41,839 nucleotides of DNA, taken from a virus. The number at the start of each line of letters is the position of its first letter. Position 1 is the first letter of the stretch. The DNA is taken from positions 1 to 41,839 of the IMG/VR virus record IMGVR_UViG_3300044962_000005. The stretch is one strand, 5' to 3'. The notes under the pieces are model-generated. The model worked only from the letters and a program-made list of their open reading frames with translations. It did not search any database and was not told the origin of the DNA. A program made the position numbers and the translations under genes. This document shows positions 705 through 41,839 of this stretch, piece after piece.

Positions 705-879
705 CGTCACTCTCAGTCTGCCAAACCGGATCCACGGTTTGCAACTGCGTCCACCACGCATGAGCGGGACAGAAGTACTGCGTGGTCAAAATGTCCCAAT
801 CGGTCCAGCGGACCCGTACCCCACACGTCGCACAGCTCGGCGGTAACGCGATGATCCTATGCGCCACTGCCGTTCCCAC
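694..879 (-). CDS. Small Cys/Trp-rich hypothetical protein (possible zinc ribbon)
   Basis: The ORF follows the portal stop directly and carries CATCG...CPAH. The GTG start is uncertain (879 or 867). Confidence 0.4.
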   Translation of the reverse strand: MGTAVAHRIIALPPSCATCGVRVRWTDWDILTTQYFCPAHAWWTQLQTVDPVWQTESDDAE

Positions 880-3220
880 TCACCGGAGGAGGCGCCAACG
901 CCGCCGCTTGCTGTTGCTGCTCGAGCGCGTGCGCCTGCCCTTGGTCAGCCGCCTGCGCGTCCATCGCGGCCCCTTGCTGCCCGGCCTCTAAGGCGTGCTG
1001 CTGCCCCATCGCGGCCATCCCCACCTCGTGCGCCTGCGTCCCGAGTCGCGCCCGTTCTTCGAGGAACAACGTCATCCGCTCGATCTTGGCGCCGAGCTCG
1101 GCCACCGCCAGCCGCGTCTCGTTGTCCATCTGCGTCTTCTGGAGCGTCGTCGCGTCCCGATGCTGCGCGATCGTGACGTCCTTCTGCGCGCCAATCTGTT
1201 CGGCCTGGATCTTGGCCTGCTGCTCGATCTGCTTGGTTTTGATGATCTCGCCCGCCTGTTGCAGCTGCTGCTGCATCACCTGTGCGGCCTGCTTGAGTTG
1301 CCCGAGTTCCTGCGCCTGCTTCGCCTGCTGGTCGTCTTCCTGATGCAGTTGCGGCGGGAGCATCTTCTTCGCCCGCTCGGCGGCTTCCATGTGCCCCGGC
1401 CACGTCTGAAACTTCAACCACAGATCCCCGAACAGTTGAAACAGCGCCGGGTTGGCCTGGAACAGCATCGACAGCCCGTCGGAGCCTTCTTCAATGCGAG
1501 ACTCACGCGCTTTCCCGACACTCACCGCCACGCCGTACGTCCCTTTCTTCAGGTCGTAGCGTTTCGCGGGATCGTTGGGATCCTGGACGCGGGCGTCTGT
1601 CTGCGGCCCTTCCTGTAACGGTTGCGGGCGCTTGTTCGGCCCTGGCACAAACGGCTGATTGAGGATCACCGTCTTCGCGTTGTCCTCGAGGTCCAGCGTG
1701 CGCGCGACGCGACCTGGCCGGTCATACACGTAGGGAATCAGGTCCAGTACCACCTTCGCTTCGTAAGTGATCGAAATTTGTGCAAGATTGTCGAGGAAAT
1801 GGCTGTTCCCGCGGGTGTGCTGATCTTGCAGCGCCATGATCCCGCCCTTGGTCTTATTGGACGGGTCCGCCTGGCCGAGTGTCTCTCTGAAGGCTCCTGT
1901 CCCACTCTGGATGAACTCCCGCGCCATCCCGAGCAGCATCATGGAGGGACCGAGGCGGCTGGTGTCAATCTGCGTCCGCTGCGGCGGCGGCACCGGTTGC
2001 CCATTGAGCGCGGTCGGCTTGTAGCGCACGTAAGGCAACTGCCGCACCGCCGCCAGCAGGAACTCCTTCTCGTGCCCTTCTTCCTGGCCTTCCGCGATGA
2101 GGTACGGCGCTTTCGTCTCCATCGACGCGATCTCGATCGCATTCGACGCCGCCACGTTCAACATCCGTGCGGCTTCCTTGTTCGGCCCGTAGATCCCCAC
2201 CCAGTAGCGGTCATCATCGAAGGGCTGGAGTTCCTGGCCGATCACCGGAATGATCGGGATGTAGCGACCGTCGCGTTCCTCTTCGTCGAGGACTTCGCCG
2301 CCGTTCAGCTTGCACCACTTCAGTTTCGGCACCTGCTCTTTGCGTGAGCGGCCGTCCTTCTTGACTTTCCGTCCTGCCGGCACCGCGTCGTCGTAGCCGT
2401 CAGAGTCGTCGTCGTACTGGACGCGGGTCTTCTCGGTGAACTCCAGGTAGAAGAACTCGGCCACGAGCACCGCGCGACTTTCCCCATCGCCCTGAATCCA
2501 GTGCGGCCGCTCGTCCTCCGGCATCTGATCGAAAAAGCCCTCCGGGTCGTCGCTGCTCTGCCCGTACTTCGAGAGCTCCGACTTGGGATAGTCCTGTTTG
2601 TACCGGGAGTACGGCACCCACTGCGTCACGAACGCCCACCGCCCATCGCTCCAGTCCGGTTCCTGCGCGAACGGATCGAACACCACCGCCTCTTGATGCA
2701 GGATCCGCTTGATCACGATTTTCTGGTCGGTGAAGTGCCCGCCGTCGTCGGCGTACTCGGTCAGCACCCGATACGCGCCGCGCCCGGCTTTCACCGCGCG
2801 TTCATACGCCCAACTCCGCGCGAGCCCGGCCCGGCTGTCCACCTCGATCCGCCGATACAGCCCTTGCAGAATCTCGGCAGTGTCCTCATCGGCATCTTCG
2901 GACAGCGCGTGAATCTGCACGCCGAGATGCGCGGCTTTCTCCTGATTGAGTACGAGCTGGACGGGTTGCGCGAGCGAGGGAATCGAGATGGTCGGCCGTG
3001 GCGGAATCGTCATGCCGCCGACGGTTTCACCGGCCCGGTAGCTCTTGACCGCGTCGGGCCAGATCAGTTCGGGCACCTGGCAGCGGAGGTCGTCCTTCTC
3101 ACGTTCGACTTGGGGTTTGATCGCGTCGACGCCGAGGGCGTAGCACTGGCGGGCTTTCTTGAGAAGTTTTTCGTGCGCGGTTTCGGCGGGTTTGTCGTCG
3201 GCGCCGGTGTCGTCCTTCAT
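857..3220 (-). CDS. Portal protein with a long Q/A-rich C-terminal coiled-coil extension
   Basis: About 787 aa, located downstream of terL. Start taken at ATG 3220, which overlaps the upstream stop as ATGA. The C-terminal ~190 aa are Q/A/E-rich and helical-looking, like the P22 portal barrel. Confidence 0.85.
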   Translation of the reverse strand: MKDDTGADDKPAETAHEKLLKKARQCYALGVDAIKPQVEREKDDLRCQVPELIWPDAVKSYRAGETVGGMTIPPRPTISIPSLAQPVQLVLNQEKAAHLGVQIHALSEDADEDTAEILQGLYRRIEVDSRAGLARSWAYERAVKAGRGAYRVLTEYADDGGHFTDQKIVIKRILHQEAVVFDPFAQEPDWSDGRWAFVTQWVPYSRYKQDYPKSELSKYGQSSDDPEGFFDQMPEDERPHWIQGDGESRAVLVAEFFYLEFTEKTRVQYDDDSDGYDDAVPAGRKVKKDGRSRKEQVPKLKWCKLNGGEVLDEEERDGRYIPIIPVIGQELQPFDDDRYWVGIYGPNKEAARMLNVAASNAIEIASMETKAPYLIAEGQEEGHEKEFLLAAVRQLPYVRYKPTALNGQPVPPPQRTQIDTSRLGPSMMLLGMAREFIQSGTGAFRETLGQADPSNKTKGGIMALQDQHTRGNSHFLDNLAQISITYEAKVVLDLIPYVYDRPGRVARTLDLEDNAKTVILNQPFVPGPNKRPQPLQEGPQTDARVQDPNDPAKRYDLKKGTYGVAVSVGKARESRIEEGSDGLSMLFQANPALFQLFGDLWLKFQTWPGHMEAAERAKKMLPPQLHQEDDQQAKQAQELGQLKQAAQVMQQQLQQAGEIIKTKQIEQQAKIQAEQIGAQKDVTIAQHRDATTLQKTQMDNETRLAVAELGAKIERMTLFLEERARLGTQAHEVGMAAMGQQHALEAGQQGAAMDAQAADQGQAHALEQQQQAAALAPPPVSGNGSGA

Positions 3221-4568: not shown

Positions 4569-6059
4569 TCATGCGCTCATCCACCCACCAGACGAGATCG
4601 GCGGGAACTGCACCGTCTGCGATCCGCCCGCCTTCGGCTTCACCACCTGCGCGAACGTCAACGCCAACGCGTCCCCATCGTCTGGACTGTCTACCCCGCG
4701 CGCCTTCATGTGTTCCTTCGGTTCGAGCACGATTTGATCTTGCCGGTTGTGGCTGTAGCCTGGTCCGGTCAGATCCGTCTCCAGTCGCGGCGAGTCGTCA
4801 ATACACCCGTGCGTCAGCCAGTCGCGGAGCTTGCCCCACATGTACGCCCGGTAGTTGGCGTACTTGTCGTCCGGTGCCTTCCACCCGAACTGGATCTCCA
4901 CGACGTTGGTGTGCCCGAGCTGCTGGAGCCGGTTCACGATCGGGCCGCCGATCCCGGTGCCGTCCACGAACAGCATTTGAATCGACCGGCCATTGAACTT
5001 GCGCCCGAGGACGTCAGCCGCCACGGTCACGAGTCGCATGGAGTCACGGGCTTGCTCTCCAGGGATGCGAAGAGACGGGATAGTTGCGCCATCAGGTCCG
5101 CGTCGGAAACGGAACACACAATCGTCGCCTCCCCCTCTGGCAACGTCGAGTCCACAAACCAATGGCTCGTCGGCCAGTGGTTCAATGCGTCGACGTTGAG
5201 CGTCATAGACACGCTGGGAATCAATGTATTGGAGGTCTGAAGCCGCTGGCGGTAAGCCTCGGACACGTACACGGACAAAGTCGGAGTCTTCGCCATAGTC
5301 CTGCACCCATTCGTCGATTTGCGCCTTGTTCGTGAACTTGCTCGTGCGGCTGTCGATAATGATCGGATGCCACCGGTTCCGCGCCGCCCCATGCACCGCC
5401 TCGTGAAACTTCCCAGTCGACCGCGTCGTATTCCCGAACACGAAGATCATCGACTCCCCGTCCGTCAGCCCGCCTTCGGCCACTTCCCAGATTGGATTAG
5501 GAATCGCGCTCGCCTCATCGAAGATGTAAAAGCTCGTGCTGTCGGCCGCGTGCTGGCCGGCGAAGGCTTCGGAGTTCTCTTCCTTGGACGACTGCGGCGC
5601 GCAGAACCACGACTCCCTGAACCCCGTATAGAACATCCGCTCACTGTTGACCGTGAACCAGTGTCCGGTCAGGCAGAGCTTCGTCCACCGCTGCAACGCG
5701 GCCCAGGTCTTCGTCTGGAGCTGCGTGATGGTGTTGGCGGTGACCGTGCCCTGCGCGTGCGGACGCGTCGACATGATCCAGTCCACAATCATCGCGACGA
5801 GGACCGACTTGCCGATGCCGTGCCCCGAGCTCGTCGCGCCTCTGACCGGAGGTACCGCGGTATGCCCGTTGAACGACCGGGCCGTGACCTCTTCCCCGAG
5901 CCACTGGAGGAACTCCCGTTGCCAGGTGTCCGGGCCGTCGTGATGTTGGAGCAGGCCGCGTTCGCCCCACGGATAGGCGCCGACGACAAACCGCAGCGGG
6001 TCGTGATAGGTCGTCGCCACCCAATCGGCAATCTCGAGATTGACGTCAGGAACCGGCAC
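4569..6059 (-). CDS. terL: Terminase large subunit
   Basis: 496 aa with Walker A-like SSGHGIGKS. An acidic nuclease half carries LVCGLDVARGGGDD and LFVDGTGIGG, which is typical terL architecture. Confidence 0.92.
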   Translation of the reverse strand: MPVPDVNLEIADWVATTYHDPLRFVVGAYPWGERGLLQHHDGPDTWQREFLQWLGEEVTARSFNGHTAVPPVRGATSSGHGIGKSVLVAMIVDWIMSTRPHAQGTVTANTITQLQTKTWAALQRWTKLCLTGHWFTVNSERMFYTGFRESWFCAPQSSKEENSEAFAGQHAADSTSFYIFDEASAIPNPIWEVAEGGLTDGESMIFVFGNTTRSTGKFHEAVHGAARNRWHPIIIDSRTSKFTNKAQIDEWVQDYGEDSDFVRVRVRGLPPAASDLQYIDSQRVYDAQRRRIEPLADEPLVCGLDVARGGGDDCVFRFRRGPDGATIPSLRIPGEQARDSMRLVTVAADVLGRKFNGRSIQMLFVDGTGIGGPIVNRLQQLGHTNVVEIQFGWKAPDDKYANYRAYMWGKLRDWLTHGCIDDSPRLETDLTGPGYSHNRQDQIVLEPKEHMKARGVDSPDDGDALALTFAQVVKPKAGGSQTVQFPPISSGGWMSA

Positions 6060-7096: not shown

Positions 7097-7420
7097 CTAA
7101 GGATTCTGATGATCCGGCTCCACGAGATACCGTCGCCACAACGCCCGAATCTTGAGCCACGTCCGCACCGTGATCCGAGTGTGCAACCGCACCCGCGCCC
7201 GTTTCAAGCCGAGCCGCTCGGCCACGTTCACCTGTTCCCGCTTCAACTGCTCGACTTTCCGTCTGGCATCCGTCGCACTGATGAGACTGCCTAACCGTCT
7301 GATGCCTTTCGCTTTATCTCTCGATCGGGCCGCTTCATACCTCGCATTCGCCGCGCGACAGGTCAAACATCGGCAGCCCCGTTTGTACTGGCGGCGTGTC
7401 CCATGCGCGTCGTCAGGCAT
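7097..7420 (-). CDS. DNA-binding protein with a HGTxxxYxxGCRCxxC motif
   Basis: HGTRRQYKRGCRCLTCRAANARY followed by a basic helical region. From memory, this motif recurs in phage DNA-binding proteins. Confidence 0.65.
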   Translation of the reverse strand: MPDDAHGTRRQYKRGCRCLTCRAANARYEAARSRDKAKGIRRLGSLISATDARRKVEQLKREQVNVAERLGLKRARVRLHTRITVRTWLKIRALWRRYLVEPDHQNP

Positions 7421-7426
7421 CGGTAA

Positions 7427-7687
7427 TCATTTCAGTGGTTTATACGAAATCTCCGTTGCGAGATACGGCCGATCCGGCAGCACCGAGAAGGACACGCGAC
7501 AGCCGGGCTGCAATTTCTCCGGCGTCGTGAAATCCCGATAGACATGCCCGAACAGCCAGGCGTAAATCCACCCACTATCGGCTCTCAGCACGCCTTGCAC
7601 GATGTCGAACCGTCGCACGCGCTGTTGATCGTCGGGCGCGTCCACATAGAAGAGGATCGTCCCCATCTGACGCATGTCGTCAGGCAT
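7427..7687 (-). CDS. Hypothetical protein (86 aa)
   Basis: ATG-initiated ORF; overlaps the upstream gene end by 8 nt. Confidence 0.65.
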   Translation of the reverse strand: MPDDMRQMGTILFYVDAPDDQQRVRRFDIVQGVLRADSGWIYAWLFGHVYRDFTTPEKLQPGCRVSFSVLPDRPYLATEISYKPLK

Positions 7688-7874
7688 CCGCGTGCCGATC
7701 CTTGAGTTTCAGGACATGGCTCAGCTTGACGCGTCGTCCACCCTGAATGATTACGTAGGGTAAGGATCCGTGCGCCATCCAGTAGTAAAGGGTGCGACGG
7801 GAAATGCCGGCGTGCTGTGCCGCTTGATCGAGATTCACGCGCTGAGAGGCAGGCATTTTCATGAACAATTTCAC
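7680..7874 (-). CDS. Excisionase-family / MerR-like HTH DNA-binding protein
   Basis: VNLDQAAQHAGISRRTLYYWMAHGSLPYVIIQGGRRVKL matches the HTH_17 pattern. GTGA overlap with the upstream stop; ATG alternatives lie 12 and 18 nt downstream. Confidence 0.7.
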   Translation of the reverse strand: MKLFMKMPASQRVNLDQAAQHAGISRRTLYYWMAHGSLPYVIIQGGRRVKLSHVLKLKDRHADA

Positions 7875-8266
7875 GAAGAGGTCTTCCCGCGCGTAATGGC
7901 TTCCTGCCCTATGTCATCGGCAGGAACTACCGCGAAAATCTCGTTCGAGACGGCTCCCCGCAACCGAATACCGAGATACTTGTCCGCCAACCACCCAATC
8001 GCCGCACGACGGGCCGGTGGCGACATCTGCTCAACGGCTTTCGCAAACCGGGCGAGCGCGTCGATTTCTGGGAACTGCCTCGGCTTCCGTCGGCGCGTCG
8101 GCGGGGCCGGTGGCAGGGCCGGCACAAGCGGCTCATCATCCACACGATCATCGGGCGGCTGCATGAAGAACAGTTTCTTCACCCGTTCTAATTCAGCGGC
8201 TTCCGTCTGAATGGTGTGCTCCGCTTCCCTGATGTTTCGGTCGGCGAGCGTTTCGTCGTCGTTCAT
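7871..8266 (-). CDS. Hypothetical protein (131 aa); its C-terminal ~20 codons come from a repeat copy
   Basis: ATG with GAGG upstream. The tail EIFAVVPADDIGQEAITRGKTSS is encoded by repeat copy 7888-7934. Confidence 0.7.
   Translation of the reverse strand: MNDDETLADRNIREAEHTIQTEAAELERVKKLFFMQPPDDRVDDEPLVPALPPAPPTRRRKPRQFPEIDALARFAKAVEQMSPPARRAAIGWLADKYLGIRLRGAVSNEIFAVVPADDIGQEAITRGKTSS
7888..7934 (-). repeat. Palindromic repeat element, family A, copy i (reverse orientation)
   Basis: Reverse complement reads CGCGGTAGTTCCTGCCGATGACATAGGGCAGGAAGCCATTACGCGCG. Confidence 0.85.
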
Positions 8267-8275
8267 CGCGTTACC

Positions 8276-9298
8276 TCAGTCCGGCAATGCGGTAGCTGGA
8301 TTGGTGGATGGATTCACAGGCTTTTCATTGCGCGCAAAAGACTTATCGTCGTTCTCTGTCGTCTCTCGCACGTCGTGGGGGGCGGCAGGGGCGCGCAGTC
8401 GATCAATTTCTGCGGCGATGAGCGCGCCAGCTTTCACGAGGTTCCGCCTCGGATCGTCGCTTGGCTTCCACCACTCCCAATCCCACGGCCACCCAGACGG
8501 CGCCGCGATGTGCTCTGCACGACTCTGCACCGTTCCGTCGGCTTGTCGCCTCGCCAGCGCGGCATAGCAACAAGCCGCCGCGACCATCTCGGCCTCGCGG
8601 TGAGTCTTATCGTGCGCCGCCGTCCAGCCTTCCGCGGTCTGTTGCCGCCGACGTTCCGCGGCAATCAGCGTGATGCCCTCCTCCTGGGCGGGGACCGCCG
8701 CGAGGGTCGAAGTCGTGTCAAAAGAAGCATTTGGCGCGCGTAGACCGCCTTCCCCTATCCCATCGACAGGATCTACCGCGGAGTCCGCGCCGGTGACCGC
8801 TCCCAACAACGCACGACGGACGTAACCGACGACATCAGCCGGACACGACACATGGCCATCAATGCCGCAGAGTCCGAAGATTTCCTGTAAGGCTTCATCC
8901 TGTGCACGCCATGCCGCTAAGAGGGCCTCCGCGTGTCGGCAGTTCAGGCTACAGCGTGGATCGCCCTGAAACTCCGCGACGAACGCGAGCGCACGCGCCA
9001 GATCCTCGACCGCTTGCACGCCGGGCGGCTGAGAGTTGTCTGGTTGTGGTTTACGCGGTAGATCCTGTCCGTCAGAGATGGCAGATCGGTCTACGCGCGA
9101 CAGATCGTCTTTATTTTCTTGAGGTTGGGGGGCGGGGACCGCAGGGGCGGCGATGTCTTTCACGGCGTCTAAGAGTGCGTTGAGTTCCGCGCCGCAGCGT
9201 CCGGAATGCTCAATGATCACGTCGCCATACGCTCGACGCTGAGCCTCACGATACGCAATGAACGCTAATCGCAGGCGACGAATCTCGTCCGGCTTCAC
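8276..9298 (-). CDS. Composite 340-aa ORF: three small-gene-sized segments joined in frame by repeat copies
   Basis: GTG 9298 overlaps the upstream stop as GTGA; an alternative GTG lies at 9346. Copies 9054-9099 and 8735-8780 are internal, and copy 8285-8345 encodes the C-terminus. The third segment carries EGWTAAHD...WPWDWEWWKP...RNLVKAGALIAAEIDRL. Confidence 0.65.
   Translation of the reverse strand: MKPDEIRRLRLAFIAYREAQRRAYGDVIIEHSGRCGAELNALLDAVKDIAAPAVPAPQPQENKDDLSRVDRSAISDGQDLPRKPQPDNSQPPGVQAVEDLARALAFVAEFQGDPRCSLNCRHAEALLAAWRAQDEALQEIFGLCGIDGHVSCPADVVGYVRRALLGAVTGADSAVDPVDGIGEGGLRAPNASFDTTSTLAAVPAQEEGITLIAAERRRQQTAEGWTAAHDKTHREAEMVAAACCYAALARRQADGTVQSRAEHIAAPSGWPWDWEWWKPSDDPRRNLVKAGALIAAEIDRLRAPAAPHDVRETTENDDKSFARNEKPVNPSTNPATALPD
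8285..8345 (+). repeat. Repeat element, family B, copy h
   Basis: CAATGCGGTAGCTGG...CAGGCTTTTCATTGCGCGCAAAAGACTT. By eye about three quarters identical to 11562-11620. Confidence 0.8.
8735..8780 (-). repeat. Palindromic repeat element, family A, copy a (reverse orientation)
   Basis: Reverse complement reads CGCGGTAGATCCTGTCGATGGGATAGGGGAAGGCGGTCTACGCGCG. Confidence 0.9.
9054..9099 (+). repeat. Palindromic repeat element, family A, copy b
   Basis: CGCGGTAGATCCTGTCCGTCAGAGATGGCAGATCGGTCTACGCGCG. Confidence 0.9.
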
Positions 9299-9459
9299 GT
9301 CCACAGCAGATCCTCCTCCGACAACTCCACCAGACGACGACGCCACCGATCCACCGCAGGCACCGGTAACGTCACCTTGCTCGACCGCTCAAACTTGATC
9401 GCGACGTCCATTTCGACCGCAAGTTGTTTGAGCGCCGTCCGTAATTCTTCTTTGGTCAT
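9295..9459 (-). CDS. Small hypothetical protein (54 aa), below the ORF-track size cutoff
   Basis: My own translation: MTKEELRTALKQLAVEMDVAIKFERSSKVTLPVPAVDRWRRRLVELSEEDLLWT. The ATG at 9459 abuts repeat copy c, and the stop overlaps the next GTG. Confidence 0.6.
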   Translation of the reverse strand: MTKEELRTALKQLAVEMDVAIKFERSSKVTLPVPAVDRWRRRLVELSEEDLLWT

Positions 9460-9507
9460 CGCGCGTAATCGCTCAAGTGGTCGCTCCCCTCGATTGGATC
9501 TACCGCG
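9460..9507 (-). repeat. Palindromic repeat element, family A, copy c (reverse orientation, intergenic)
   Basis: Reverse complement reads CGCGGTAGATCCAATCGAGGGGAGCGACCACTTGAGCGATTACGCGCG. Confidence 0.85.
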
Positions 9508-9538
9508 GAGTCCTCAACGAGAACGCTCCCGGCGTCCG

Positions 9539-9856
9539 TCACGAGCCGACCTGCTCGCCGTCCAACCAACGAAATTCGATGAGCGGAAAGTGCGCGTTGC
9601 ATCGGACACAAAACGTCGCGCCGTAGAACGACGGATCCCGCGCATACGTCTCCGACAGCGCCCGTCCCATCGTCGTCGTGGTGCCGCACGGTAGATGGGT
9701 GTACACGTCACGATAGGGTCGGATAAAGCCTTTCGCGCGTTCATCTGGGCAGAGCACGATGTAGCCGTCGTGTTGGCCCGTGGCGTTCGTCTGGCTCGCA
9801 CGCACTTCATCGACGGCCTTGCCGTTCGTCGTGCAGAGTTTCTGAGAATCGGTCAT
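9539..9856 (-). CDS. Hypothetical Cys-containing protein (105 aa)
   Basis: ATG 9856 is preceded by AAGGA at 8 nt spacing. An alternative TTG at 9862 overlaps the upstream stop. Confidence 0.65.
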   Translation of the reverse strand: MTDSQKLCTTNGKAVDEVRASQTNATGQHDGYIVLCPDERAKGFIRPYRDVYTHLPCGTTTTMGRALSETYARDPSFYGATFCVRCNAHFPLIEFRWLDGEQVGS

Positions 9857-9858
9857 GT

Positions 9859-10086
9859 TCAATGTCCTTCTGGCCCGACTTTCACGAAGACCGTATCTTT
9901 GACAGGCCCCGCACCGCGCTCAATCACGCGAATACGAAACCGCGCGTGCAACTGCTTGAGGTAGCGATCAGCCTTGGCGTCGTCTTCTACGACGAAGGCC
10001 ACGAGCGCGCCGCCGCTGGCCGCGTGCCCGATCGCGTCGATGCGCTCCTTCTCCGGCAACTCGAAGAGATCGGCGTAAATCGCCAT
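9859..10086 (-). CDS. Hypothetical protein (75 aa)
   Basis: ATG preceded by GGGAGA. Confidence 0.65.
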   Translation of the reverse strand: MAIYADLFELPEKERIDAIGHAASGGALVAFVVEDDAKADRYLKQLHARFRIRVIERGAGPVKDTVFVKVGPEGH

Positions 10087-10113
10087 GGTGACTTATCTCC
10101 CTCGGAGGTGTCT

Positions 10114-10158
10114 CGCGGTAGATCCTGTCGATGAAATAGTCGCAGAGGTCTACGCGCG
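10114..10158 (+). repeat. Palindromic repeat element, family A, copy d (intergenic)
   Basis: CGCGGTAGATCCTGTCGATGAAATAGTCGCAGAGGTCTACGCGCG. Confidence 0.9.
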
Positions 10159-10271
10159 CATAAGTCTGACGTTCTTCATCGTTCGTCGTCACGCCTCCTA
10201 CTGATCCCGTCGCGCGGGAGTCATCCCCCTAGAGTTCCAGAACGACGACGACGTGTTGGCGCGCGTGGCCA

Positions 10272-10457
10272 CTAGGGGTTCTCCTCAGGCCCTCGTACCG
10301 CAGCCTCCGACTGAGCTGATGCGGTACGTCCCTGAATCGCGCCAATGAACCACCCCCCAACTTGCACGCCAACGATGCGCGTCCAAATAAAACGGCGGTC
10401 GGCGACCAAATGCACCGTCACCGGTAAGGCCGAGAACCTAAAGTTGTAGACCGTCAC
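10272..10457 (-). CDS. Small hypothetical protein (61 aa, possible TM segment)
   Basis: GTG 10457 is preceded by AGGAG at 7 nt. Sequence includes IVGVQVGGWFIGAI. The start is uncertain. Confidence 0.4.
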   Translation of the reverse strand: MTVYNFRFSALPVTVHLVADRRFIWTRIVGVQVGGWFIGAIQGRTASAQSEAAVRGPEENP

Positions 10458-10491
10458 CGCACCGCTCCTATCGCCCGTAGCGCCGACGTAA

Positions 10492-10791
10492 TCAAAAGGC
10501 CGTCTCCTGACGTGGCCGCAATCCCGCCGGCAGTTCCAGCCCGACGGCAATCAACGCCTCGTCCAATGTCCGAACGATCACTGCATGGCCTCGCCAGAGC
10601 GCCAGGAACGCCTCCTGTGACGGGCGGACCTTCCCCTTGGCCGTCTTCACCTCCAACAGATACGTGCGCCCCTGACGCCCCACAATCAAATCTAAGGGGC
10701 CTCCCGAATAGACCGAGCACCCGCGCGCTTTCAGGCCATCCCGGATCGTCCGGTGATTCGAGTCGAGCTGATGAACGACGTACTTCCCCAT
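10492..10791 (-). CDS. VRR-NUC-like PD-(D/E)xK nuclease
   Basis: 99 aa with GGPLDLIVGRQGRTYLLEVKTAKGKVRPSQ, which fits the D...ExK pattern and the VRR-NUC size. Confidence 0.7.
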   Translation of the reverse strand: MGKYVVHQLDSNHRTIRDGLKARGCSVYSGGPLDLIVGRQGRTYLLEVKTAKGKVRPSQEAFLALWRGHAVIVRTLDEALIAVGLELPAGLRPRQETAF

Positions 10792-10845
10792 CTACATCCT
10801 GACGGGCTGGGCGGCCATCCTCATGACAGAATCCGATCGAAAAGA

Positions 10846-11124
10846 TCATTCATCGCGCGTCGCACCTTCCTGCCTCTCCGTTGCGACGATTGGATCTACC
10901 GCGTCAGAAGCCGGTGACTCATCCACCTCCTGCAACGCACGGCACAAACGACAACGGAACGGCCCGACCAACTTTGCCTCGCCGTTAACGAACGCAATCC
11001 ACACCTGCTCCCACTCATGCGGGCATTTGCCATGCGTACAGTCAGGACAGCACACGCGGCCTTGTCGTTTCCAGTCGTCACAGGAGCTTTTTACGGCCCC
11101 GCATCCGCCGCATGTTTCTTTCAA
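10846..11124 (-). CDS. Cys-rich small protein (92 aa); its C-terminal ~20 codons come from a repeat copy
   Basis: CGGCG...CCPDC...CPHEW...CRLC. TTG start overlaps the upstream stop as TTGA. The tail SDAVDPIVATERQEGATRDE is encoded by repeat copy e. Confidence 0.6.
   Translation of the reverse strand: MKETCGGCGAVKSSCDDWKRQGRVCCPDCTHGKCPHEWEQVWIAFVNGEAKLVGPFRCRLCRALQEVDESPASDAVDPIVATERQEGATRDE
10854..10903 (-). repeat. Palindromic repeat element, family A, copy e (reverse orientation)
   Basis: Reverse complement reads CGCGGTAGATCCAATCGTCGCAACGGAGAGGCAGGAAGGTGCGACGCGCG. Confidence 0.8.
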
Positions 11125-11342
11125 CGCAGAACCTCACTCGTTACTTCAATCGGATGATCGCCATACCAGCCCGCGCAGTCTTCGCAGATGTAGACCTGAT
11201 CGAAGCAGAGACTATCGAGCATCCGCACCTCGCGCGGATCCGTATCGGGCGGAAGATCGCGCATCCGTTTCAGCACCATGAAGACCCGGCCGTTCGGCGT
11301 GAACTCGTCAAGGCAATCCTCGCAACGAGACGTACTGATCAT
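11121..11342 (-). CDS. Small Cys-rich protein (73 aa, CEDC...CEDC)
   Basis: Start taken at ATG 11342 (MISTSRCEDC...). The longer ORF N-terminus overlaps the upstream gene. Confidence 0.55.
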   Translation of the reverse strand: MISTSRCEDCLDEFTPNGRVFMVLKRMRDLPPDTDPREVRMLDSLCFDQVYICEDCAGWYGDHPIEVTSEVLR

Positions 11343-11535
11343 CAGCGTCGACCTCGCGAATGTCTCCCGGCGACACGTAGCACCCATCGGTGCCGTGCTG
11401 GCAGTGCTCCAACTTCACCAGCGCCATGTGATTGCCGAGCACGTTGATCGTCTCGCCGGTGAATCGCCCGTACTCGCCACGATGCGGATGATCCTTGCCG
11501 ACAATCTTGACGCGCGGCGGTGTCGTCGTTTTCAA
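11308..11535 (-). CDS. Hypothetical protein (75 aa)
   Basis: TTG start with GGAGG 4 nt upstream. Confidence 0.55.
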   Translation of the reverse strand: MKTTTPPRVKIVGKDHPHRGEYGRFTGETINVLGNHMALVKLEHCQHGTDGCYVSPGDIREVDADDQYVSLRGLP

Positions 11536-11561
11536 CGGACCTCCGAATGACTCCGAACCGT

Positions 11562-11620
11562 CAATGCGGTAGCTGGGACGGTGTGATGACTCTCAGGCTC
11601 TGCATTGCGCGCAAAGTCTT
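11562..11620 (+). repeat. Repeat element, family B, copy g
   Basis: CAATGCGGTAGCTGG...CAGGCTCTGCATTGCGCGCAAAGTCTT; partner of 8285-8345. Confidence 0.8.
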
Positions 11621-11695
11621 CTGTCTCTTGAATTTTCGTCGTTCATGCCGCGTCATCCTCGCCTGGCGCACGACCGAATAGCTGAGAAGGCGCAG

Positions 11696-11823
11696 GCGTT
11701 GCAGAGTGCAACGGTGTTTTCTCTGTTTCTCGGACGGTTGCAGCAACCTCTCTCCTAAAGGAGAGAGAGAGGTTTTGCGCTGCGACCGTTGCAAATTGCG
11801 CTTTTGCCGTTGCAGGTTGCAAC
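11696..11823. promoter_or_regulatory. Iteron cluster plus GA/CT hairpin: candidate replication origin or regulatory array
   Basis: (C)CGTTGCA occurs at 11696, 11734, 11786 and 11807, and inverted at 11707. The palindrome GTTGCAAC lies at 11816. A hairpin CCTCTCTCC-TAAA-GGAGAGAGG spans 11747-11772. No convincing ORF. The array lies directly downstream of the replication ATPase gene. Confidence 0.5.
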
Positions 11824-11827
11824 GCGC

Positions 11828-13075
11828 TCATGACTGATCCGCTAGCCCGATGCGCCCATCGGCCAATCGGAGAAACGTCCCACTCTTCCGCTTCACTTCC
11901 GTGCGGATGGTCGAGGCGGTGGTCTTGAGCATCTCGGCGAGTTCGTCAGTGGGCATGGCCCCATGTTTCAGGAGGTAGTGCATCCGCTGAGCAACTGGGA
12001 GTTTCGCCGCCAGCTCGTCGTGCGCCACAATCTCGGTCGGGCGTATCTGGGTTGCCGTGCCAAGGAATTCCATCCGCTCTCCGAAGGGCCGCCGCAGCCG
12101 CCCGACATTGGATTTGCGGTGATAGAACCCCACTGTTAGACCGTCTCCCCCTTCTTCCGCGTCGGTGCGTTTGAGATACCAGGTGCTCCGGGCGCCATTG
12201 GCCCAGAACACACTCCCGAAGGGCTTTTGATCGCCTTGTTCGGCTTTACTGATGTGGGCGAGATGCAGACTCCCCATCTGGCCGAGTTCCCGCAAGGCCC
12301 GAAAATAACCGGTGGCCGCTTCGGCGGATTCGGGTGCCCCTTCCGCCGCGAACCCGAGCGAGTCGCAGATGAGGAACGTGATCCGCCGGTGGGCGACGAT
12401 TTCTTTGAGCCGCCCGACATCCCGGACAAAGGGCCGATCGCACCGTCGATAGAACAACTGCTCGAGATGTGGAACCGGTCCTGCGAGCCGATGCAGCCGC
12501 CGCCGATGGTCATCCCCGGCAAATTCCCAATCGCAGTAGAGAACGCGTTCTCCCCGCTGCGCAAGGTCCACCGCGGCTGACAACGCGAGATAGGACTTCC
12601 CGCAGCCACCGTCTCCGAACCAGATCGTCGGATGACGCCGGAGAACGGGCAGACCGCCCGCGTCCATCTCGGACTCAAGCTCGTCATCAATCGGCACCTG
12701 CTCGAGCGGCCGTTCCGGGTCGCCCTGGTCTTCCGCCGAGAGCACCTGTAGGCACAGCTCCTCCAGGAGCCCCACCCAGTCGATGTCCTCGGCGCGTGTC
12801 CGTTCCCGCAGAAACTTCGCCCGTTCCGATCGGGACCGTTGCCCGGAACAGTTGAAGTCGGCACTGGAGACGATGTTGTCGGCGACGGTCTGGGCGCCGC
12901 GGAACGTCACCCGCACCGTCAGGAGGCCGATCGTTTCCTGATGCTCCCGCCGGATCCGCGTCACATCGAAGCGGATCCCGCTCTGCGGCAGCGACAAGCG
13001 ATACCCGATCCCGGGCACCGCGTGCCAATCGTGTGGACCCGATGGCATCGTGCCACCGGGCGTCGGTCCCGCCAT
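11828..13075 (-). CDS. RepA/AAA_25-like RecA-superfamily replication ATPase (helicase-type) with a C-terminal wHTH-like tail
   Basis: Walker A GDGGCGKS, Walker B-like ITFLICDSLG, and LAHISKAEQ. 415 aa. Confidence 0.8.
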   Translation of the reverse strand: MAGPTPGGTMPSGPHDWHAVPGIGYRLSLPQSGIRFDVTRIRREHQETIGLLTVRVTFRGAQTVADNIVSSADFNCSGQRSRSERAKFLRERTRAEDIDWVGLLEELCLQVLSAEDQGDPERPLEQVPIDDELESEMDAGGLPVLRRHPTIWFGDGGCGKSYLALSAAVDLAQRGERVLYCDWEFAGDDHRRRLHRLAGPVPHLEQLFYRRCDRPFVRDVGRLKEIVAHRRITFLICDSLGFAAEGAPESAEAATGYFRALRELGQMGSLHLAHISKAEQGDQKPFGSVFWANGARSTWYLKRTDAEEGGDGLTVGFYHRKSNVGRLRRPFGERMEFLGTATQIRPTEIVAHDELAAKLPVAQRMHYLLKHGAMPTDELAEMLKTTASTIRTEVKRKSGTFLRLADGRIGLADQS

Positions 13076-14151: not shown

Positions 14152-14781
14152 TCAGGCGGCGGCCTGTTGGCGCGACCGGAGATACCCGTCCAGGCCCTTC
14201 GCCGTCACGTACTCGACAAACCGCCCAAGCAACCGACCACAGTCCTCGTGCAATGCGGCGTACGGATACAGATCAAAGCTGTGAATCGCTTTCACCTCGA
14301 CCACGCTGTTGCCGTGGTCGTCGAGCTCGAAGACGTGATAGGTAATCCGCGACGGCTCGAAAATATCCGTCATGAACCGCCACTGGCAGGAATCGGCGTA
14401 CTTGTCGAAATCGAAGGTCGAACTCGTGGTTTTGAACTCGCTCAGATGCGCGCCGAGTAAATGATCAGCTTTAGCCACCACGTCATGCGGGCCGTAGGCT
14501 TTCGTAGCCTTGGCTTCAAAGACGCCGCGCCGATCGATGAGGGCGAGCGCCGGCGCCATCGTCGCGTCGGAAAAGGCATAGTCGTGGTGGTGAAAGCCCC
14601 CGGGCACTTCGTAGCTGTCGGGATCCTCGAGCACCTCGCCGAACGCCTTCCCGAGCAGGACCGCTGGCGTCGGCACGAACTTGCCGCAGATGGTGTCGAT
14701 CAAGGACTGCTCGGTCATCCACTCCTGATCGGGCTGCATGAACAGGCGGAACGATTCGAGCGTCGTCGTGCTGATTCTCAC
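14152..14781 (-). CDS. PD-(D/E)xK (RecB/Cas4-like) exonuclease
   Basis: VVAKADHLLGAHLSEFKTT gives D...ExK, followed by a QWRFM (QxxxY-like) motif. GTG 14781 overlaps the upstream stop as GTGA. Confidence 0.7.
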   Translation of the reverse strand: MRISTTTLESFRLFMQPDQEWMTEQSLIDTICGKFVPTPAVLLGKAFGEVLEDPDSYEVPGGFHHHDYAFSDATMAPALALIDRRGVFEAKATKAYGPHDVVAKADHLLGAHLSEFKTTSSTFDFDKYADSCQWRFMTDIFEPSRITYHVFELDDHGNSVVEVKAIHSFDLYPYAALHEDCGRLLGRFVEYVTAKGLDGYLRSRQQAAA

Positions 14782-15695
14782 GCCGTCCGCTCCACCGGCT
14801 GCGGCAGACTGAAGGCTTTCGCCGCCGGACTCCAGACCAACCCGAGTGCCTTCGCGCGGTCGTTCAACAGCTTCTTCACCTGCGGCGCCGTGGTCGCGTT
14901 CAACTTGGACACTTCCGGAATGGCCGCGTTGATCTCCTCCGGCGCCTGGAACGTGTCGATCGCCGTGCGCCAGTCGTCCACCGCGGCGGCCACCTTCGCG
15001 CTCTGGCCGGAGATCGCCCCGAGCGCGGCCCGCCCGGTGACGATCAAATCCGCGAGCACGGTCTGCGCTTTGGCGACTGGCGGCACGGTGAGCGGCGCCC
15101 AGCCCGCCGGGTTCTTCCCGATCCATTTGTCGGTCGGATTGAAATCGAGCACCCGCTGCTTCCCGCTCATCGCGAGATACCCGACGAAGTCGGACACCTT
15201 CATGACTTCGGCATACGAACCACCGGTGATGTCCGGCCGCACGCTCTTGCTGTCGGCGTCGCCTTCTTCTTTGTCATGGGCGATGAGCACGACGTCTTTG
15301 CCGAGTGTCCGTAGCAGCGCAATCCAGAGCCGGAAGCGCGCTTTGAGGACGCCGTAGCCCTGGAGGCTGAGATTGCCGTCCCGCCCGAGTTTCGGATTGC
15401 CGGCGATGATGTCGGTCGACATCAGATCGAGGCAGCGGCCCACGGTGTCCACGACGATCGTCTGATACGGTGCGAGCGCCTCGACATGCTCGGTCAGTTC
15501 CGTGACGTCGGCCCACGTCCCAATCTGCAAGGTATCGCGCCGGTTCGCCGCCCGATGGGCGCCATTGTCGAAATCGAGGAGGAGCGGATCAGCGGCGGAA
15601 TACCCGAGGGACGACTTCCCGATCCCCGGCTGGCCGAAGATCATGAACACCGGATGCTGAACTTCGATCGCGTCGGTCGACTTGATAATCTTCAC
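14778..15695 (-). CDS. Sak4-like AAA_24 recombination ATPase
   Basis: VFMIFGQPGIGKSSLG is a Walker A motif and IVVDTVG is Walker B-like. GTG 15695 follows AAAGGA. The ORF-track start at 15773 adds an unconvincing N-terminus. Confidence 0.8.
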   Translation of the reverse strand: MKIIKSTDAIEVQHPVFMIFGQPGIGKSSLGYSAADPLLLDFDNGAHRAANRRDTLQIGTWADVTELTEHVEALAPYQTIVVDTVGRCLDLMSTDIIAGNPKLGRDGNLSLQGYGVLKARFRLWIALLRTLGKDVVLIAHDKEEGDADSKSVRPDITGGSYAEVMKVSDFVGYLAMSGKQRVLDFNPTDKWIGKNPAGWAPLTVPPVAKAQTVLADLIVTGRAALGAISGQSAKVAAAVDDWRTAIDTFQAPEEINAAIPEVSKLNATTAPQVKKLLNDRAKALGLVWSPAAKAFSLPQPVERTA

Positions 15696-17292: not shown

Positions 17293-17430
17293 TTACCGGT
17301 CCTCGAACAGCAATTCCACCGGTTGCGACGCGAGGAGGATGGCGTGCAAACCCCGTTCAAACGGACTCGGGAAGCCGAGCGTCACCCATTTGCCGGTGTC
17401 GGTGTACTTGACGTGAATGATGTATTTCAT
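17293..17430 (-). CDS. Small hypothetical protein (45 aa), below the ORF-track cutoff
   Basis: My own translation: MKYIIHVKYTDTGKWVTLGFPSPFERGLHAILLASQPVELLFEDR. It fills the gap between two genes. Confidence 0.55.
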   Translation of the reverse strand: MKYIIHVKYTDTGKWVTLGFPSPFERGLHAILLASQPVELLFEDR

Positions 17431-17433
17431 GGG

Positions 17434-17781
17434 TTACTGCCCTTCCGCGTGTGCGAGCAACGGTTCGTCGCAGACCCACTCCACGATCTCGACTTCGCGC
17501 TCAGGCTTCGCGGGTTCGACGCGCGTGCCGGTCACGACTTTGCGGCAGACGGTGGCGCGATCAGTGAAGACCTGCAACTCGACGTCGCCCGCGAACATGC
17601 GCGAGAGATGGAAATAGTCGTCGCTGTAGACCTTGCGCCAGCCGCCCAGCCGCGCCATGTCCGCGAGCAGCTCCCGCGATTGCACGTAGACCAGATGCGT
17701 CGGCGTGCTCAATTCGATCGCGGGATGGGCGTCGAGAAAATCGGCCAACTCGCGCAACCCTTTCGAGACATCAGCGTTCAT
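17434..17781 (-). CDS. Hypothetical protein (115 aa)
   Basis: ATG-initiated ORF abutting the upstream stop. Confidence 0.7.
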   Translation of the reverse strand: MNADVSKGLRELADFLDAHPAIELSTPTHLVYVQSRELLADMARLGGWRKVYSDDYFHLSRMFAGDVELQVFTDRATVCRKVVTGTRVEPAKPEREVEIVEWVCDEPLLAHAEGQ

Positions 17782-17991
17782 TCAGTGACTCCTCACCGCT
17801 TGCGCGGCGACTTGGATCTGGACAATCGCGATCAGTTGCGGATCCGCGTCCCGTCGCCAGCGGGTGTGCCCGCGCAACGCTTTCTTCACGACGGTGAGCG
17901 AGTGCCACGACGTTTGACAGAGCGGACACGTCCCGCGGCCATCCGCATTCGGGGGCACGATCAAGCCGGAGGCTTCGCACAGGAACCGCAT
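17782..17991 (-). CDS. Small hypothetical protein (69 aa)
   Basis: ATG-initiated ORF; carries CEASG...CPLC. Confidence 0.6.
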   Translation of the reverse strand: MRFLCEASGLIVPPNADGRGTCPLCQTSWHSLTVVKKALRGHTRWRRDADPQLIAIVQIQVAAQAVRSH

Positions 17992-17994
17992 GGC

Positions 17995-18465
17995 TTACTG
18001 CCCTTCCGCCTTGGCGATCACGATCGAGGCGGCGTCCAGTGCCTTGGCGTTGATGTCGGAGAAATCTCCCGAGGCCGCGACGAGGGCCGCGAGACGGAAC
18101 GACGTTTCCTTCAGCGCCGCAAGCAGATCAGGAGCCGCCGCGATCAGGCTCGCGTCGGCTTCTTTCTGTGGGTACGGTCGATCGGCTCGACGCGGCAGTA
18201 CAGCAACGGTCACTGTCTCGACGAGACTTTCGATCGCGGCACCGTTGACGGACGTCCCGCTGTGGAGCCGAACGCCCCACGGCCCAGGCGTATGCGCGAC
18301 GTTCTTCGTGACCGACATCGAGAGCCTTTCCGTTGCGGAGTTCGCGGTAGTTCCTGTCGCGGGGCGCGACGACTGACGGTCTACGCGCGGGAGATTCTTC
18401 TCTGCCCTGACGATCTCGACACTCGCGTAGGGCACGACTTCTGGACGGAGGAATTTCGGGATCAT
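17995..18465 (-). CDS. Phage protein with a TPGPW...ASLIAAAPDLLAAL domain; a repeat copy is inserted near its N-terminus
   Basis: ATG 18465 overlaps the upstream stop as ATGA. An internal alternative start at ATG 18318 (MSVTKNV) follows GGAAAGG. Codons 23-42 are encoded by repeat copy f. Confidence 0.65.
   Translation of the reverse strand: MIPKFLRPEVVPYASVEIVRAEKNLPRVDRQSSRPATGTTANSATERLSMSVTKNVAHTPGPWGVRLHSGTSVNGAAIESLVETVTVAVLPRRADRPYPQKEADASLIAAAPDLLAALKETSFRLAALVAASGDFSDINAKALDAASIVIAKAEGQ
18343..18389 (+). repeat. Palindromic repeat element, family A, copy f (outlying copy)
   Basis: CGCGGTAGTTCCTGTCGCGGGGCGCGACGACTGACGGTCTACGCGCG. Confidence 0.85.
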
Positions 18466-26255: not shown

Positions 26256-26642
26256 TCATAACGTCGCGGCTTTATCGCGGATCGCTTGCAGAAATTGCGC
26301 AGGTGTCACGTTCGGTAACGGCGGCGTGAGCTTCGTGCCGATCAGGTTGAACCGATCGAGGATCAACAGGAACGCCGCTTTTGTCGCGAGCGGCATCGCG
26401 TCGATGTCCGCTTGGGCCGTCAGTTGCGGCGTGCTCGCGGGCGCGGTGTCGAGCGCGTTCTGCGCGGCAGTAATATTGGCTCCCGTCCACGCTGTGTTCT
26501 TTTTGATCACGAAGGCCTGGGATCCGGGCTGGTGTTGAATCCCCGCTGTGGCGTCGAGCGCGCGCAGTTGCGCCACAAGAGACGCGAGATCCGGCTCCGT
26601 CGTTCGCGCTGCTGTGAAGGTCTGATAGAACACCGGCGCCAT
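26256..26642 (-). CDS. Hypothetical protein downstream of the tail fibre (128 aa)
   Basis: TAATG overlap with the tail fibre stop. Confidence 0.65.
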   Translation of the reverse strand: MAPVFYQTFTAARTTEPDLASLVAQLRALDATAGIQHQPGSQAFVIKKNTAWTGANITAAQNALDTAPASTPQLTAQADIDAMPLATKAAFLLILDRFNLIGTKLTPPLPNVTPAQFLQAIRDKAATL

Positions 26643-28021: not shown

Positions 28022-28107
28022 GGGTTACACTGCTCCTGTGTCTCGCGCACGTCGCGCGGCCTGGCTCATCATCGGCTTTGTGCTCTTCTGGCTCTGGGTC
28101 GCCTTCA

Positions 28108-41807: not shown

Positions 41808-41839
41808 TTCTTCGGGCGTTTCGTGACTGCTCTGGAGCT
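41713..41839. repeat. Terminal direct repeat, identical to 1-127
   Basis: Base-by-base comparison with the first 127 nt. Confidence 0.97.

Follow-up and report, generated by a model that had tools for sequence, protein, structure and literature searches.

A chimeric phage open reading frame whose modules are joined in frame by copies of a gene-junction repeat

The sequence considered here (hereafter the window) is the full 41,839 nt of IMG/VR virus record IMGVR_UViG_3300044962_000005, a whole JGI metagenome contig with a G+C content of ~63%. The locus of interest is a 342-amino-acid (aa) open reading frame (ORF) on the minus strand, located in a stretch of small genes with recombination genes on one side and the terminase on the other. 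Within this ORF short coding segments are separated by copies of a repeated element that elsewhere, both in the window and in other contigs, lies at junctions between genes; copies running with the genes are termed F and those lying against transcription R. The features of the locus, in the order of the ORF, are:

8276..9304, minus strand: chimeric ORF, 342 aa plus stop, with its start at GTG 9304 as in the JGI gene call (P0001)
9110..9304, minus strand: segment 1, an N-terminal '..EIRRL..' cap followed by module 1 (AYREAQRRAYGDVIIEHSGRCGAELNALLDA)
9020..9135, minus strand (F, the ORF strand): copy b, a family-A junction element with its core at 9045-9105 and 34-nt arm spacing
8798..9019, minus strand: segment 2, module 2a (~8915-9001) fused to module 2b (~8801-8938)
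8729-8788, plus strand (R, against transcription): core of copy a, a family-A element with 34-nt arm spacing
8665..8730, minus strand: stretch flanking copy a on the outside, with homology to intergenic junctions of contigs L020 and L031 and without a canonical start for segment 3
8387..8674, minus strand: segment 3, an all-helical phage domain with the pattern LIAAERxRQ..EGWT..HD..CYA..WPW..WWKP..RNLVKAGALIAAEIDRL
8257..8364, minus strand (F): family-B element, comprising the C-terminal tail of the ORF and its stop TGA 8278-8276, then a Shine-Dalgarno (SD) sequence GAGG and ATG 8266 of the next gene

No stop interrupts the minus-strand frame between 9346 and the TGA at 8278-8276, in agreement with the first-pass annotation, which had described a 340-aa ORF beginning at GTG 9298; in-frame GTG codons are present at 9346, 9304 and 9298. 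The start is corrected here to GTG 9304, which is the better candidate because it is preceded, at a spacing of 6 nt, by the SD sequence GGAGGAGG; GTG 9298 overlaps the stop of the 54-aa gene 9295-9459. ORF residue numbers are counted from GTG 9346, and subtraction of 14 yields positions in P0001 and in the AlphaFold2 (AF2) model. Codon usage in the ORF frame equals or exceeds that of the other two same-strand frames across most of the three segments, the exceptions being both repeat-encoded linkers and one interval (~8506) within segment 3. The full-length AF2 model assigns a predicted local distance difference test score (pLDDT) of <50 to the copy b, copy a and family-B stretches (model residues 52-92, 172-198 and 306-342) and of 97-98 to segment 3; segments 1 and 2, modelled without an alignment, are helical at low to moderate confidence, with two helices predicted for segment 1. 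The whole ORF had no match in Pfam, NCBIfam or PDB sequences, comparison of the full-length model with the PDB returned noise only, and no second contig with the same ORF was found. It occurs in none of the 77 deposited phage genomes in which the segment-3 domain is present, and its three-part order in no protein of collections of 5.8 billion and 1.84 billion sequences; full-length homologues with the same order of parts and no repeats at the joints, which the first-pass annotation had set as the observation contrary to its proposal, were found in neither.

Segment 3 contains a conserved domain of ~100 aa (approximately residues 225-320). Nine PHROGs (including 6628, 9434, 9763, 11504 and 6574) match it over residues 211-332 with E-values from 4e-29 to 2.5e-14; all are function-unassigned families, and the match falls always near the C-terminal end of profiles of 186-685 positions. 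There are 297 homologues, and the 120 listed are 195-558 aa long (most of them ~195-260 aa), cover 23-53% of the query, match within segment 3 only and have variable N-termini. Pfam domains recorded on some homologues are Lar, DUF550, DUF551, exonuclease, Ead/Ea22 and HTH (PF14354, PF04447, PF04448, PF16473 and PF13935 among them). The invariant columns of the family (E, R, R, D, Y, K, AGAL..AEI.R, WPW and WWKP; alignments A6 and A7) are all kept in the window, the sole notable change in the motif being HDK for HDD, at a position variable also in P0037. Modelled alone, the segment gives a confident helical structure (pLDDT 94.5). Neither Pfam, NCBIfam nor PDB sequences contain a match to segment 3, its model matches no PDB fold (E >8), and in BFVD it resembles uncharacterised phage proteins only, including stand-alone ones of 105-136 aa. 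A function by way of MazG-/DUF550-like structures was not retained, the matches having E >1 and amounting to a lead only, and a Klebsiella phage match considered as a stand-alone segment-3 gene turned out to be a 253-aa fusion. To judge from these alignments, the domain is usually a C-terminal fusion partner and sometimes a small gene of its own. Codon inspection of 8806-8587 bears out the earlier statement that segment 3 lacks a start: there is no in-frame ATG, GTG or TTG between TTG 8806 and ATG 8587, the latter already inside the conserved domain, and the SD-like AGGAGGAGG (8685-8677) is followed by ATC, ACG and CTG. Such a lack is ordinary for this family, since its members usually carry the domain at the C-terminal end of fusion proteins.

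The N-terminal 207 aa gave no match in a word-indexed protein search; an exhaustive phmmer search of 1.84 billion representatives returned 28 matches, which split the region into mini-modules. Module 1 (ORF residues 22-66; consensus AY(H/R)EAQRRxFGDVxIxHSGRCGAEL) is elsewhere the C-terminal part of proteins of 104-124 aa (P0126, P0127 and P0136), and P0127 is a stand-alone gene on contig L033. Segment 2, taken previously as a single part, is divided by the same search into 2a and 2b, with the joint lying between ..HAEAL and LAAWRAQ..: module 2a (RALAFVAEFxGDPRCSLNCxHAEAL) stands at the start of 63-143-aa proteins and also inside larger ones, and module 2b (LLAxWREQDEALQxIxGLCGxDxxxxCPADVV) occurs in proteins of 130-333 aa. 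Segment 2 homologues exist as stand-alone genes (P0124 on L032, P0128 on L034 and P0123 on L036). Segment 2 does contain an in-frame GTG (9019), which lies where the stand-alone 2a genes begin (8-14 residues before RALAFVAEF) and would give a product of 247 aa. On the contigs of five module homologues the modules are small genes in phage early-gene arrays, with SSB and AAA_24 genes (L032) or HTH and terminase small-subunit genes (L036) as neighbours; three scans of viral contigs with the module alignments gave no confirmed locus. The homologue search proposed in the first-pass annotation finds modules 1, 2a and 2b and segment 3 as stand-alone small genes elsewhere, and these comparisons point to at least four coding modules (1, 2a, 2b and the C-terminal domain) in independent circulation. 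The idea of parts with separate small-gene histories thereby stands, whilst the count of three does not. Three small proteins that otherwise differ and come from related contigs (P0121, P0122 and P0132; L031 1048, L009 9303) have a common start cap, MSAEIRR(L/P), which the beginning of the window ORF (9284-9298, ..KPDEIRRLRL) resembles; the opening codons of early genes may themselves be a further piece that is shared and shuffled.

Copies of the element were located at both joints, with translations as first described. Copy b, between segments 1 and 2, is translated as ..LSRVDRSAISDGQDLPRKPQ, with the linker ..PQPQENKDDLSRVDRSAISDGQDLPRKPQPDNSQ.., and reads ..DDLSRVDRSAISDGQDLPRKPQ..; copy a, between segments 2 and 3, is translated as ..ADSAVDPVDGIGEGGLRAPN.. 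and is read as a linker in the 'AVDP...GLRA' frame. Together they form a 52-nt inverted repeat, 77% complementary, that brackets segment 2, and copy b is 75-85% identical to copies on contigs L007, L009, L013, L015 and L024. The last ~22 residues of the ORF and its stop lie inside a family-B copy (8257-8364), again as had been proposed. A profile search of the window found 7 family-A copies (E-values from 5e-11 to 6e-15), four running against the minus-strand genes and three with them; the window has five exact instances of the 12-nt core and two that differ at a single position, and the 18-mer GGATCTACCGCGGAGTCC has 4 matches at no more than 3 mismatches against 0.03 expected. The repeat copies are far beyond chance. 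Those outside the ORF are:

7884..7942, plus strand (R): family A, at the 3' end of the 131-aa gene 7871-8266
9456..9516, plus strand (R): family A, intergenic, with its left arm (CGCGCGATG) abutted by ATG 9459 of the 54-aa gene
10108..10163, minus strand (F): family A, followed by 27 nt (with SD GAGGGAG) and then ATG 10086 of a 75-aa gene
10848..10911, plus strand (R): family A, upstream of the VRR-NUC-like gene 10492-10791
18334..18395, minus strand (F): family A, core with 1 mismatch, ATG after 24 nt
11526-11641, minus strand (F): second family-B copy, preceding the gene that starts at TTG 11535 (11308-11535)

The two family-B copies are 79% identical over 8281-8338 and 11558-11615, and have relatives at L009 7767-7859, at L015 9836-9930 and on L031. 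Family B is not an unrelated repeat; it follows the plan of family A with diverged arms, and the existence of intermediate forms makes it a diverged sister of that family. Along the minus strand the copies form four F...R units (11641-10848, 10163-9456, 9105-8729 and 8364-7884), with other genes between them. ATG 10849, which abuts the R copy at 10848-10911, opens just ~10 codons ahead of the start of the VRR-NUC-like gene at 10791; this mini-ORF (10792-10849) may be vestigial or serve in coupling, as with that of 21 codons past copy a. The 131-aa gene after the family-B element begins (8221-8266) with MNDDETLADRNIREAE, which resembles the leader MNDEEENLSRVDRSALS of an F element on L015; some gene N-termini may, on this likeness, derive from element sequence.

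Pattern scans located the element in 9 IMG/VR loci and 20 JGI soil/rhizosphere loci (29 fetched, with overlaps among them), ~25 distinct soil/rhizosphere phage contigs in all; 39 distinct family-A copies were compared, drawn from the window and ~20 distinct contigs, to which the family-B copies and L031 add more. The element was absent from 50,697 deposited phage genomes by blastn and, under a strict pattern only, from 185,579 species genomes, and a literature search with the arm sequences gave one unrelated primer-like match. The element is 60-110 nt long, with arms CGCGCGTAGACC and GGATCTACCGCG of 11-12 bp; from one arm start to the other the distance is in most copies 34 nt (14 copies) or 35 nt (13 copies). 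When 35 copies are aligned, CGCGCGT and GGAWCTACCGCG do not vary and the spacer does. Because the conservation lies in the nucleotides of the arms, it suggests that they are recognised by a protein. No gene is common to all element-bearing loci, and among the subset of window ORFs scanned there was no transposase or invertase, the only relevant genes seen being the integrase, a Sak4-like gene, a VRR-NUC-like gene and a weak HNH match.

The two orientations are used differently. In F orientation a purine-rich stretch lies ahead of the element, and in ten F copies an SD-like run and the ATG of the next gene follow 22-27 nt past the right arm. In several of them a start codon lies 7-13 codons before the left arm, such that the element is read as a short leader, which ends with ..GGCTCCCGATGA (TGA overlapping the next ATG) in L007, L012, L017 and L024 (4/9 F-used copies of the 34-nt class) and runs on into the next coding sequence in window copy b, L009, L013 and L015, among others. 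In R orientation the element lies at the 3' end of a gene; where an upstream ORF enters it, the same frame (..GAV....AVDP..) is used in 14/14 copies, though a second frame is open too, and in approximately eight copies 0-1 nt separate the left arm from the ATG that follows (..GGTCTACGCGCG ATG), as with ATG 9459 in the window. Translated read-through copies are a, b and those of L009 (P0122), L013 (P0144), L015 and L020. F-used copies are 70-88% identical between contigs, as against 57% for copy b to copy a, and F-used and R-used copies constitute different sequence subgroups. The element is, on these observations, a gene-junction element, and it usually holds the SD, start and stop signals of the genes beside it.

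Its copies are commonly paired: 11 of 15 adjacent pairs less than 1 kb apart are F...R pairs with their right arms inward (p = 1e-4), and the sequence between paired elements is non-homologous from locus to locus. In L024 and L017 an F...R unit holds one small gene running in the opposite direction to the neighbouring genes. The L024 unit (725-980, 256 nt) contains one 54-aa Cys-rich ORF, reversed between two plus-strand genes; the gene downstream of it is 53% identical to window 26642-28021, and the matching window spacer, 28022-28107, is without the element. On L031, 70-160 (plus) and 941-1030 (minus) form a family-B inverted F...R pair around two small genes, and because of this pair the layout is not confined to family A. 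The element is also a breakpoint of homology between phages: L009, L020 and L026 have the element and an HNH gene in common at 77-81% identity, and this similarity stops ~25 nt into the element.

Relatives of the two joints carry signals that the window ORF does not. Copy b is without the stop/start GGCTCCCGATGA present in 4/8 other F-used copies of its spacing class, and its frame runs on as far as GTG 9019. Copy a is of the 34-nt spacing class, in which no stop is built in. The ~70 nt past copy a (window ..ASFDTTSTLAAVPAQEEG) are homologous to the stretch after R elements in L020 and L031: in L020 ..ESSTLTGLAAPAQEDEPPDA runs up to a stop, SD AGGAGG and the start ATG of an HNH gene also being present, in an ATG/TAG plan, and in L031 (P0121) module 2b and the R element are followed by the tail 'TTSRPAAPPAEE' / ..TTSRPAAPPAEERKV, a stop and an SD, with ATGA as the overlap into the gene that comes next. 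At the segment 2/3 joint of the window the SD is present, and a stop and a canonical start are both absent. At the place where R elements usually have the next start lies an out-of-frame ATG (8730-8728), which opens a mini-ORF of 21 codons whose stop, TGA 8667-8665, overlaps an in-frame CTG (8668-8666). The first-pass annotation had offered either a fusion created by the repeats or a locus whose stop/start junctions had been erased; the second alternative accords with the signals that L031 and L020 carry at the homologous junction, whereas the repeats as the cause of the fusion were not borne out.

We favour, with a probability of about 0.6, a read-through fusion across gene junctions that lost their stop/start signals. 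The anatomy of the ORF, its independent modules and the junction and breakpoint roles of the element are the observed part of this reading; we infer that the ORF is translated into a single chain, and in what order the events took place. Signals would be missing at two successive junctions, as copy b has no stop/start and copy a is of a class without a stop, followed by an SD and then ATC..CTG; because they are missing at both, ribosomes starting at GTG 9304 would read through both elements to give a single protein of ~37 kDa. The elements would thereby become disordered, flexible linkers between helical modules, the C-terminal domain being the only recognisable fold. The likely origin would be homologous recombination between element copies that shuffled the modules, with stop and start lost afterwards.

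A number of observations weigh against this explanation. The codon-usage signal for the ORF frame is weak, and the lost signals are deduced from two diverged relatives, this locus's own ancestral state being seen in no close relative. Smaller products could be made from internal starts (GTG 9019, or CTG 8668 coupled to the mini-ORF), a cassette model accounts about equally well for the inverted pairs that surround small genes, and in a metagenome contig an indel or a mis-join at the repeats is possible. Nor do the copies display further functional signatures. RNAalifold pairs the invariant arms only, with 0 covarying pairs and -4.75 kcal/mol; a search of 7600-11800 found no promoter-like site; only one of eight terminator-like matches touches an element (10154-10141, in the F copy 10108-10163), with no T-run; and coding-type substitution bias is absent, the synonymous fraction being 0.15 in the used frame against 0.10-0.22 in the others. 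Three candidate roles were rejected or found unsupported on these grounds: a conserved RNA or DNA hairpin, for which the invariant arms allow no covariation and the energy is weak (folding z-scores of single copies lie between +0.3 and -2.3); a promoter or terminator; and a repeat-encoded peptide conserved as protein, the synonymous fraction being no higher in the used frame.

Two of the rival explanations overlap with the favoured one. In the first, which we consider unlikely, a mobile cassette consisting of an F element, segment 2 and an R element (8729-9105 plus flanks) was inserted in frame into a gene of ~200 aa made up of segments 1 and 3, the cassette being by chance open in the frame of that gene, in the manner of the palindromic elements found within Rickettsia genes. 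Such an insertion would agree with the dominance of inward-facing F...R pairs (11/15, p = 1e-4), with the reversed single-gene units of L024 and L017, placed between or beside genes of the other strand, with F ends more alike between contigs (70-88%) than b is to a (57%), as in distinct transposon ends, with the alternation of four F...R units and backbone segments in the window, and with the length of ~195-260 aa of most listed segment-3 family members. However, no empty-site homologue joins segment 1 to segment 3, no target-site duplication is seen by inspection at the outer ends, the ORFs scanned include no transposase or invertase, and 8665-8730 is homologous to the intergenic SD junctions of L020 and L031, unlike the interior of a gene; module 1, moreover, is elsewhere the C-terminal end of small proteins and not an N-terminal partner of segment 3. 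In the second, which appears improbable, one frame would yield several products, 247 aa (segments 2 and 3) from GTG 9019 and/or 130 aa from CTG 8668 by reinitiation past the 21-codon mini-ORF, with the full-length chain as a by-product. The position of GTG 9019 at the start of stand-alone 2a genes speaks for it, as do the sizes of both products, which fit family members and the 105-136-aa stand-alone homologues, the ATG at 8730 where R elements usually present the next start, and the translational-coupling geometry formed by the SD AGGAGGAGG 8 nt upstream and the CTGA overlap. Against these stand the lack of a good SD before GTG 9019 and the rarity of CTG initiation in bacteria, and the read-through product would in any case remain, as there is no intervening stop.

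An artefact, in which mis-assembly at the 60-nt repeats or an indel hides real stops and no single phage genome contains the ORF, is very unlikely. The source is a metagenome contig with a 127-nt terminal overlap, its repeats could in principle mislead an assembler and the ORF is on no second contig, but the copies are short and 57-90% identical, making them poor substrates for mis-joining, and three segments, each with independent homologues, lie on one strand in one frame; gene order and strand are coherent across the region, and the independent contig L020 has a like open F-cargo-R reading. Scarcely credible is a shufflon-like invertible segment, with a site-specific recombinase flipping segment 2 between copies a and b to yield alternative proteins. 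These copies are indeed inverted repeats within coding sequence, an open frame spans 8797-9180 on the strand opposite segment 2, and the element is stop-free in two frames in both orientations. Yet the ORFs scanned include neither an invertase nor an Rci-like gene near the repeats, and their one recombinase is the integrase at 19845-20933; the opposite-strand ORF is without homologues and of a kind expected at 63% GC, and the arms are only 77% matched; the elements, furthermore, occur at ordinary gene boundaries along 3.7 kb in which the genes run one way and an inversion would disrupt operons.

The element recalls several described repeats and coincides with none of them. The promoter-early stem-loops (PeSLs) of T4-type phages are described as a sigma-70 promoter plus a terminator stem-loop (Arbiol et al. 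2010, PMC2839356; PMC4122927). They lie at the edges of small genes in variable regions, dispensable and for the most part orphan, and gene modules are shuffled when their copies recombine. The window element is like PeSLs as so described in marking the ends of homology (L009/L020/L026) and in flanking unrelated cargo; it differs from that description in having no promoter-like site, a single terminator-like overlap and no supported hairpin, and in occurring in both orientations, usually as inverted pairs, and translated within ORFs. The start-associated sequences (SAS) and extended SAS (ESAS) of Cluster K mycobacteriophages are repeats of the non-structural genome half that are tied to translation starts and whose function is open (Pope et al. 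2011, PMC3203893). SAS is a 13-bp motif, GGGATAGGAGCCC, 3-8 bp before start codons, and ESAS an imperfect inverted-repeat pair with 17-bp arms and a 4-13-bp spacer, just upstream of a motif resembling a ribosome-binding site and nearly always in one direction (PMC3203893). The window element likewise lies in the non-structural half, is tied to translation starts and has inverted arms with a variable spacer, but its arms are 11-12 bp, 34-35 nt apart start to start, and it occurs in both orientations and also at gene 3' ends and inside ORFs. The SAS motif itself has one match in the window, with 2 mismatches and in the portal gene, against 0.82 expected by chance.

Rickettsia palindromic elements, reportedly described by Ogata et al. 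in 2000, are said to be 100-150-bp insertions in conserved cellular genes, revealed by empty-site orthologues. They resemble the present element as palindromic nucleotide repeats translated in frame inside genes, where they add a tolerated peptide, whereas the usual place of the element is a gene boundary, at which it carries start/stop signals; no empty-site orthologue (segments 1-2 or 2-3 joined without the element) was present in the protein collections searched. Transposable elements of the miniature inverted-repeat kind (MITEs) and the doublets of repetitive extragenic palindromic (REP) sequences known as REPINs are short, non-autonomous imperfect palindromes found in both orientations and mostly between genes. 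The element is like them in form and placement and has GTAG in both arms, as in REP sequences. Inverted ends are present; by inspection there is no direct repeat outside the a/b pair, the true ends of the element being undefined. In contrast to MITEs and REPs, it is accompanied by no cognate transposase or REP-associated tyrosine transposase (RAYT) in the ORFs scanned, it is not in the 185,579 species genomes under the strict pattern, and its F-used and R-used subgroups differ, which is unexpected under random insertion either way round. Shufflons and other invertible segments (R64 Rci, Mu Gin) have inverted repeats in coding sequence that is translated both ways; here, by contrast, no dedicated recombinase was found among the ORFs scanned, and the repeats occur widely at ordinary gene boundaries.

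Repeats at gene boundaries are already known as mediators of phage mosaicism; less common is a repeat that, as here, is regularly translated and able to weld adjacent genes together. Both the element family and the segment-3 domain, which has no Pfam entry and no PDB fold match, are undescribed in the sources searched. The gain, loss and fusion of the small orphan genes that crowd phage early regions are poorly understood, and the locus pictures one route, in which a conserved, stop-free junction element would allow neighbouring mini-genes to become one multi-module protein. Gene callers would over-fuse or mis-start genes in such phages, and the repeat-encoded peptides (..SRVD..DLPR.., ..AVDP..GLRA..) can give false protein 'homology' between unrelated genes. 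A wider interpretation, which we regard as doubtful, is that the F...R units are a new kind of phage mobile gene cassette, with two unlike ends of 60-110 nt, inverted arms and 1-2 small genes. Were this so, the cassette could move or be swapped between phage genomes, since its ends are stop-free in fixed frames and carry start/stop signals, and its landing place could be intergenic, in either direction, or within a gene, to which it would add a protein module in frame; this would be an exon-shuffling-like route to multidomain phage proteins, and in the window ORF one such event would have been caught. Experiments on the element family and on the segment-3 domain are both tractable.

The source of the window is an uncultured temperate soil phage with a distantly P22-like portal. 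Bases 1-127 are identical to bases 41713-41839, an exact 127-nt direct repeat at the contig ends that is most simply explained as a circular-assembly overlap, and the window is probably a complete phage genome of ~41.7 kb. From ~19000 down to 500 nearly all genes are on the minus strand, densely packed and in many cases overlapping. An HNH-like protein is encoded at 7097-7420. The genes that mark this setting are:

19845-20933, plus strand: integrase
14778-15695, minus strand: Sak4-like annealing protein
11828-13075, minus strand: AAA_25 protein
10492-10791, minus strand: VRR-NUC-like nuclease
7680-7874, minus strand: HTH/excisionase-like protein
4569-6059, minus strand: large terminase
857-3220, minus strand: portal, distantly P22-like, at most 32% identical to that of any deposited phage

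A host search of the 185,579 species genomes with the element (strict pattern) and the portal protein gave no match and no host was assigned; Rfam and tRNA scans found nothing. Two further repeats occur at a distance from the ORF. At 17428-17459 and 17989-18020 a second start-associated repeat, 84% identical, reads on the coding strand GCGGAAGGGCAGTAA(C/G)CCATG and constitutes the SD and ATG of two small early genes (starts 17430 and 17991), and at 37187-37312 two tandem 63-nt units, 71% identical, lie inside the large structural-region ORF 36670-37656 on the minus strand.

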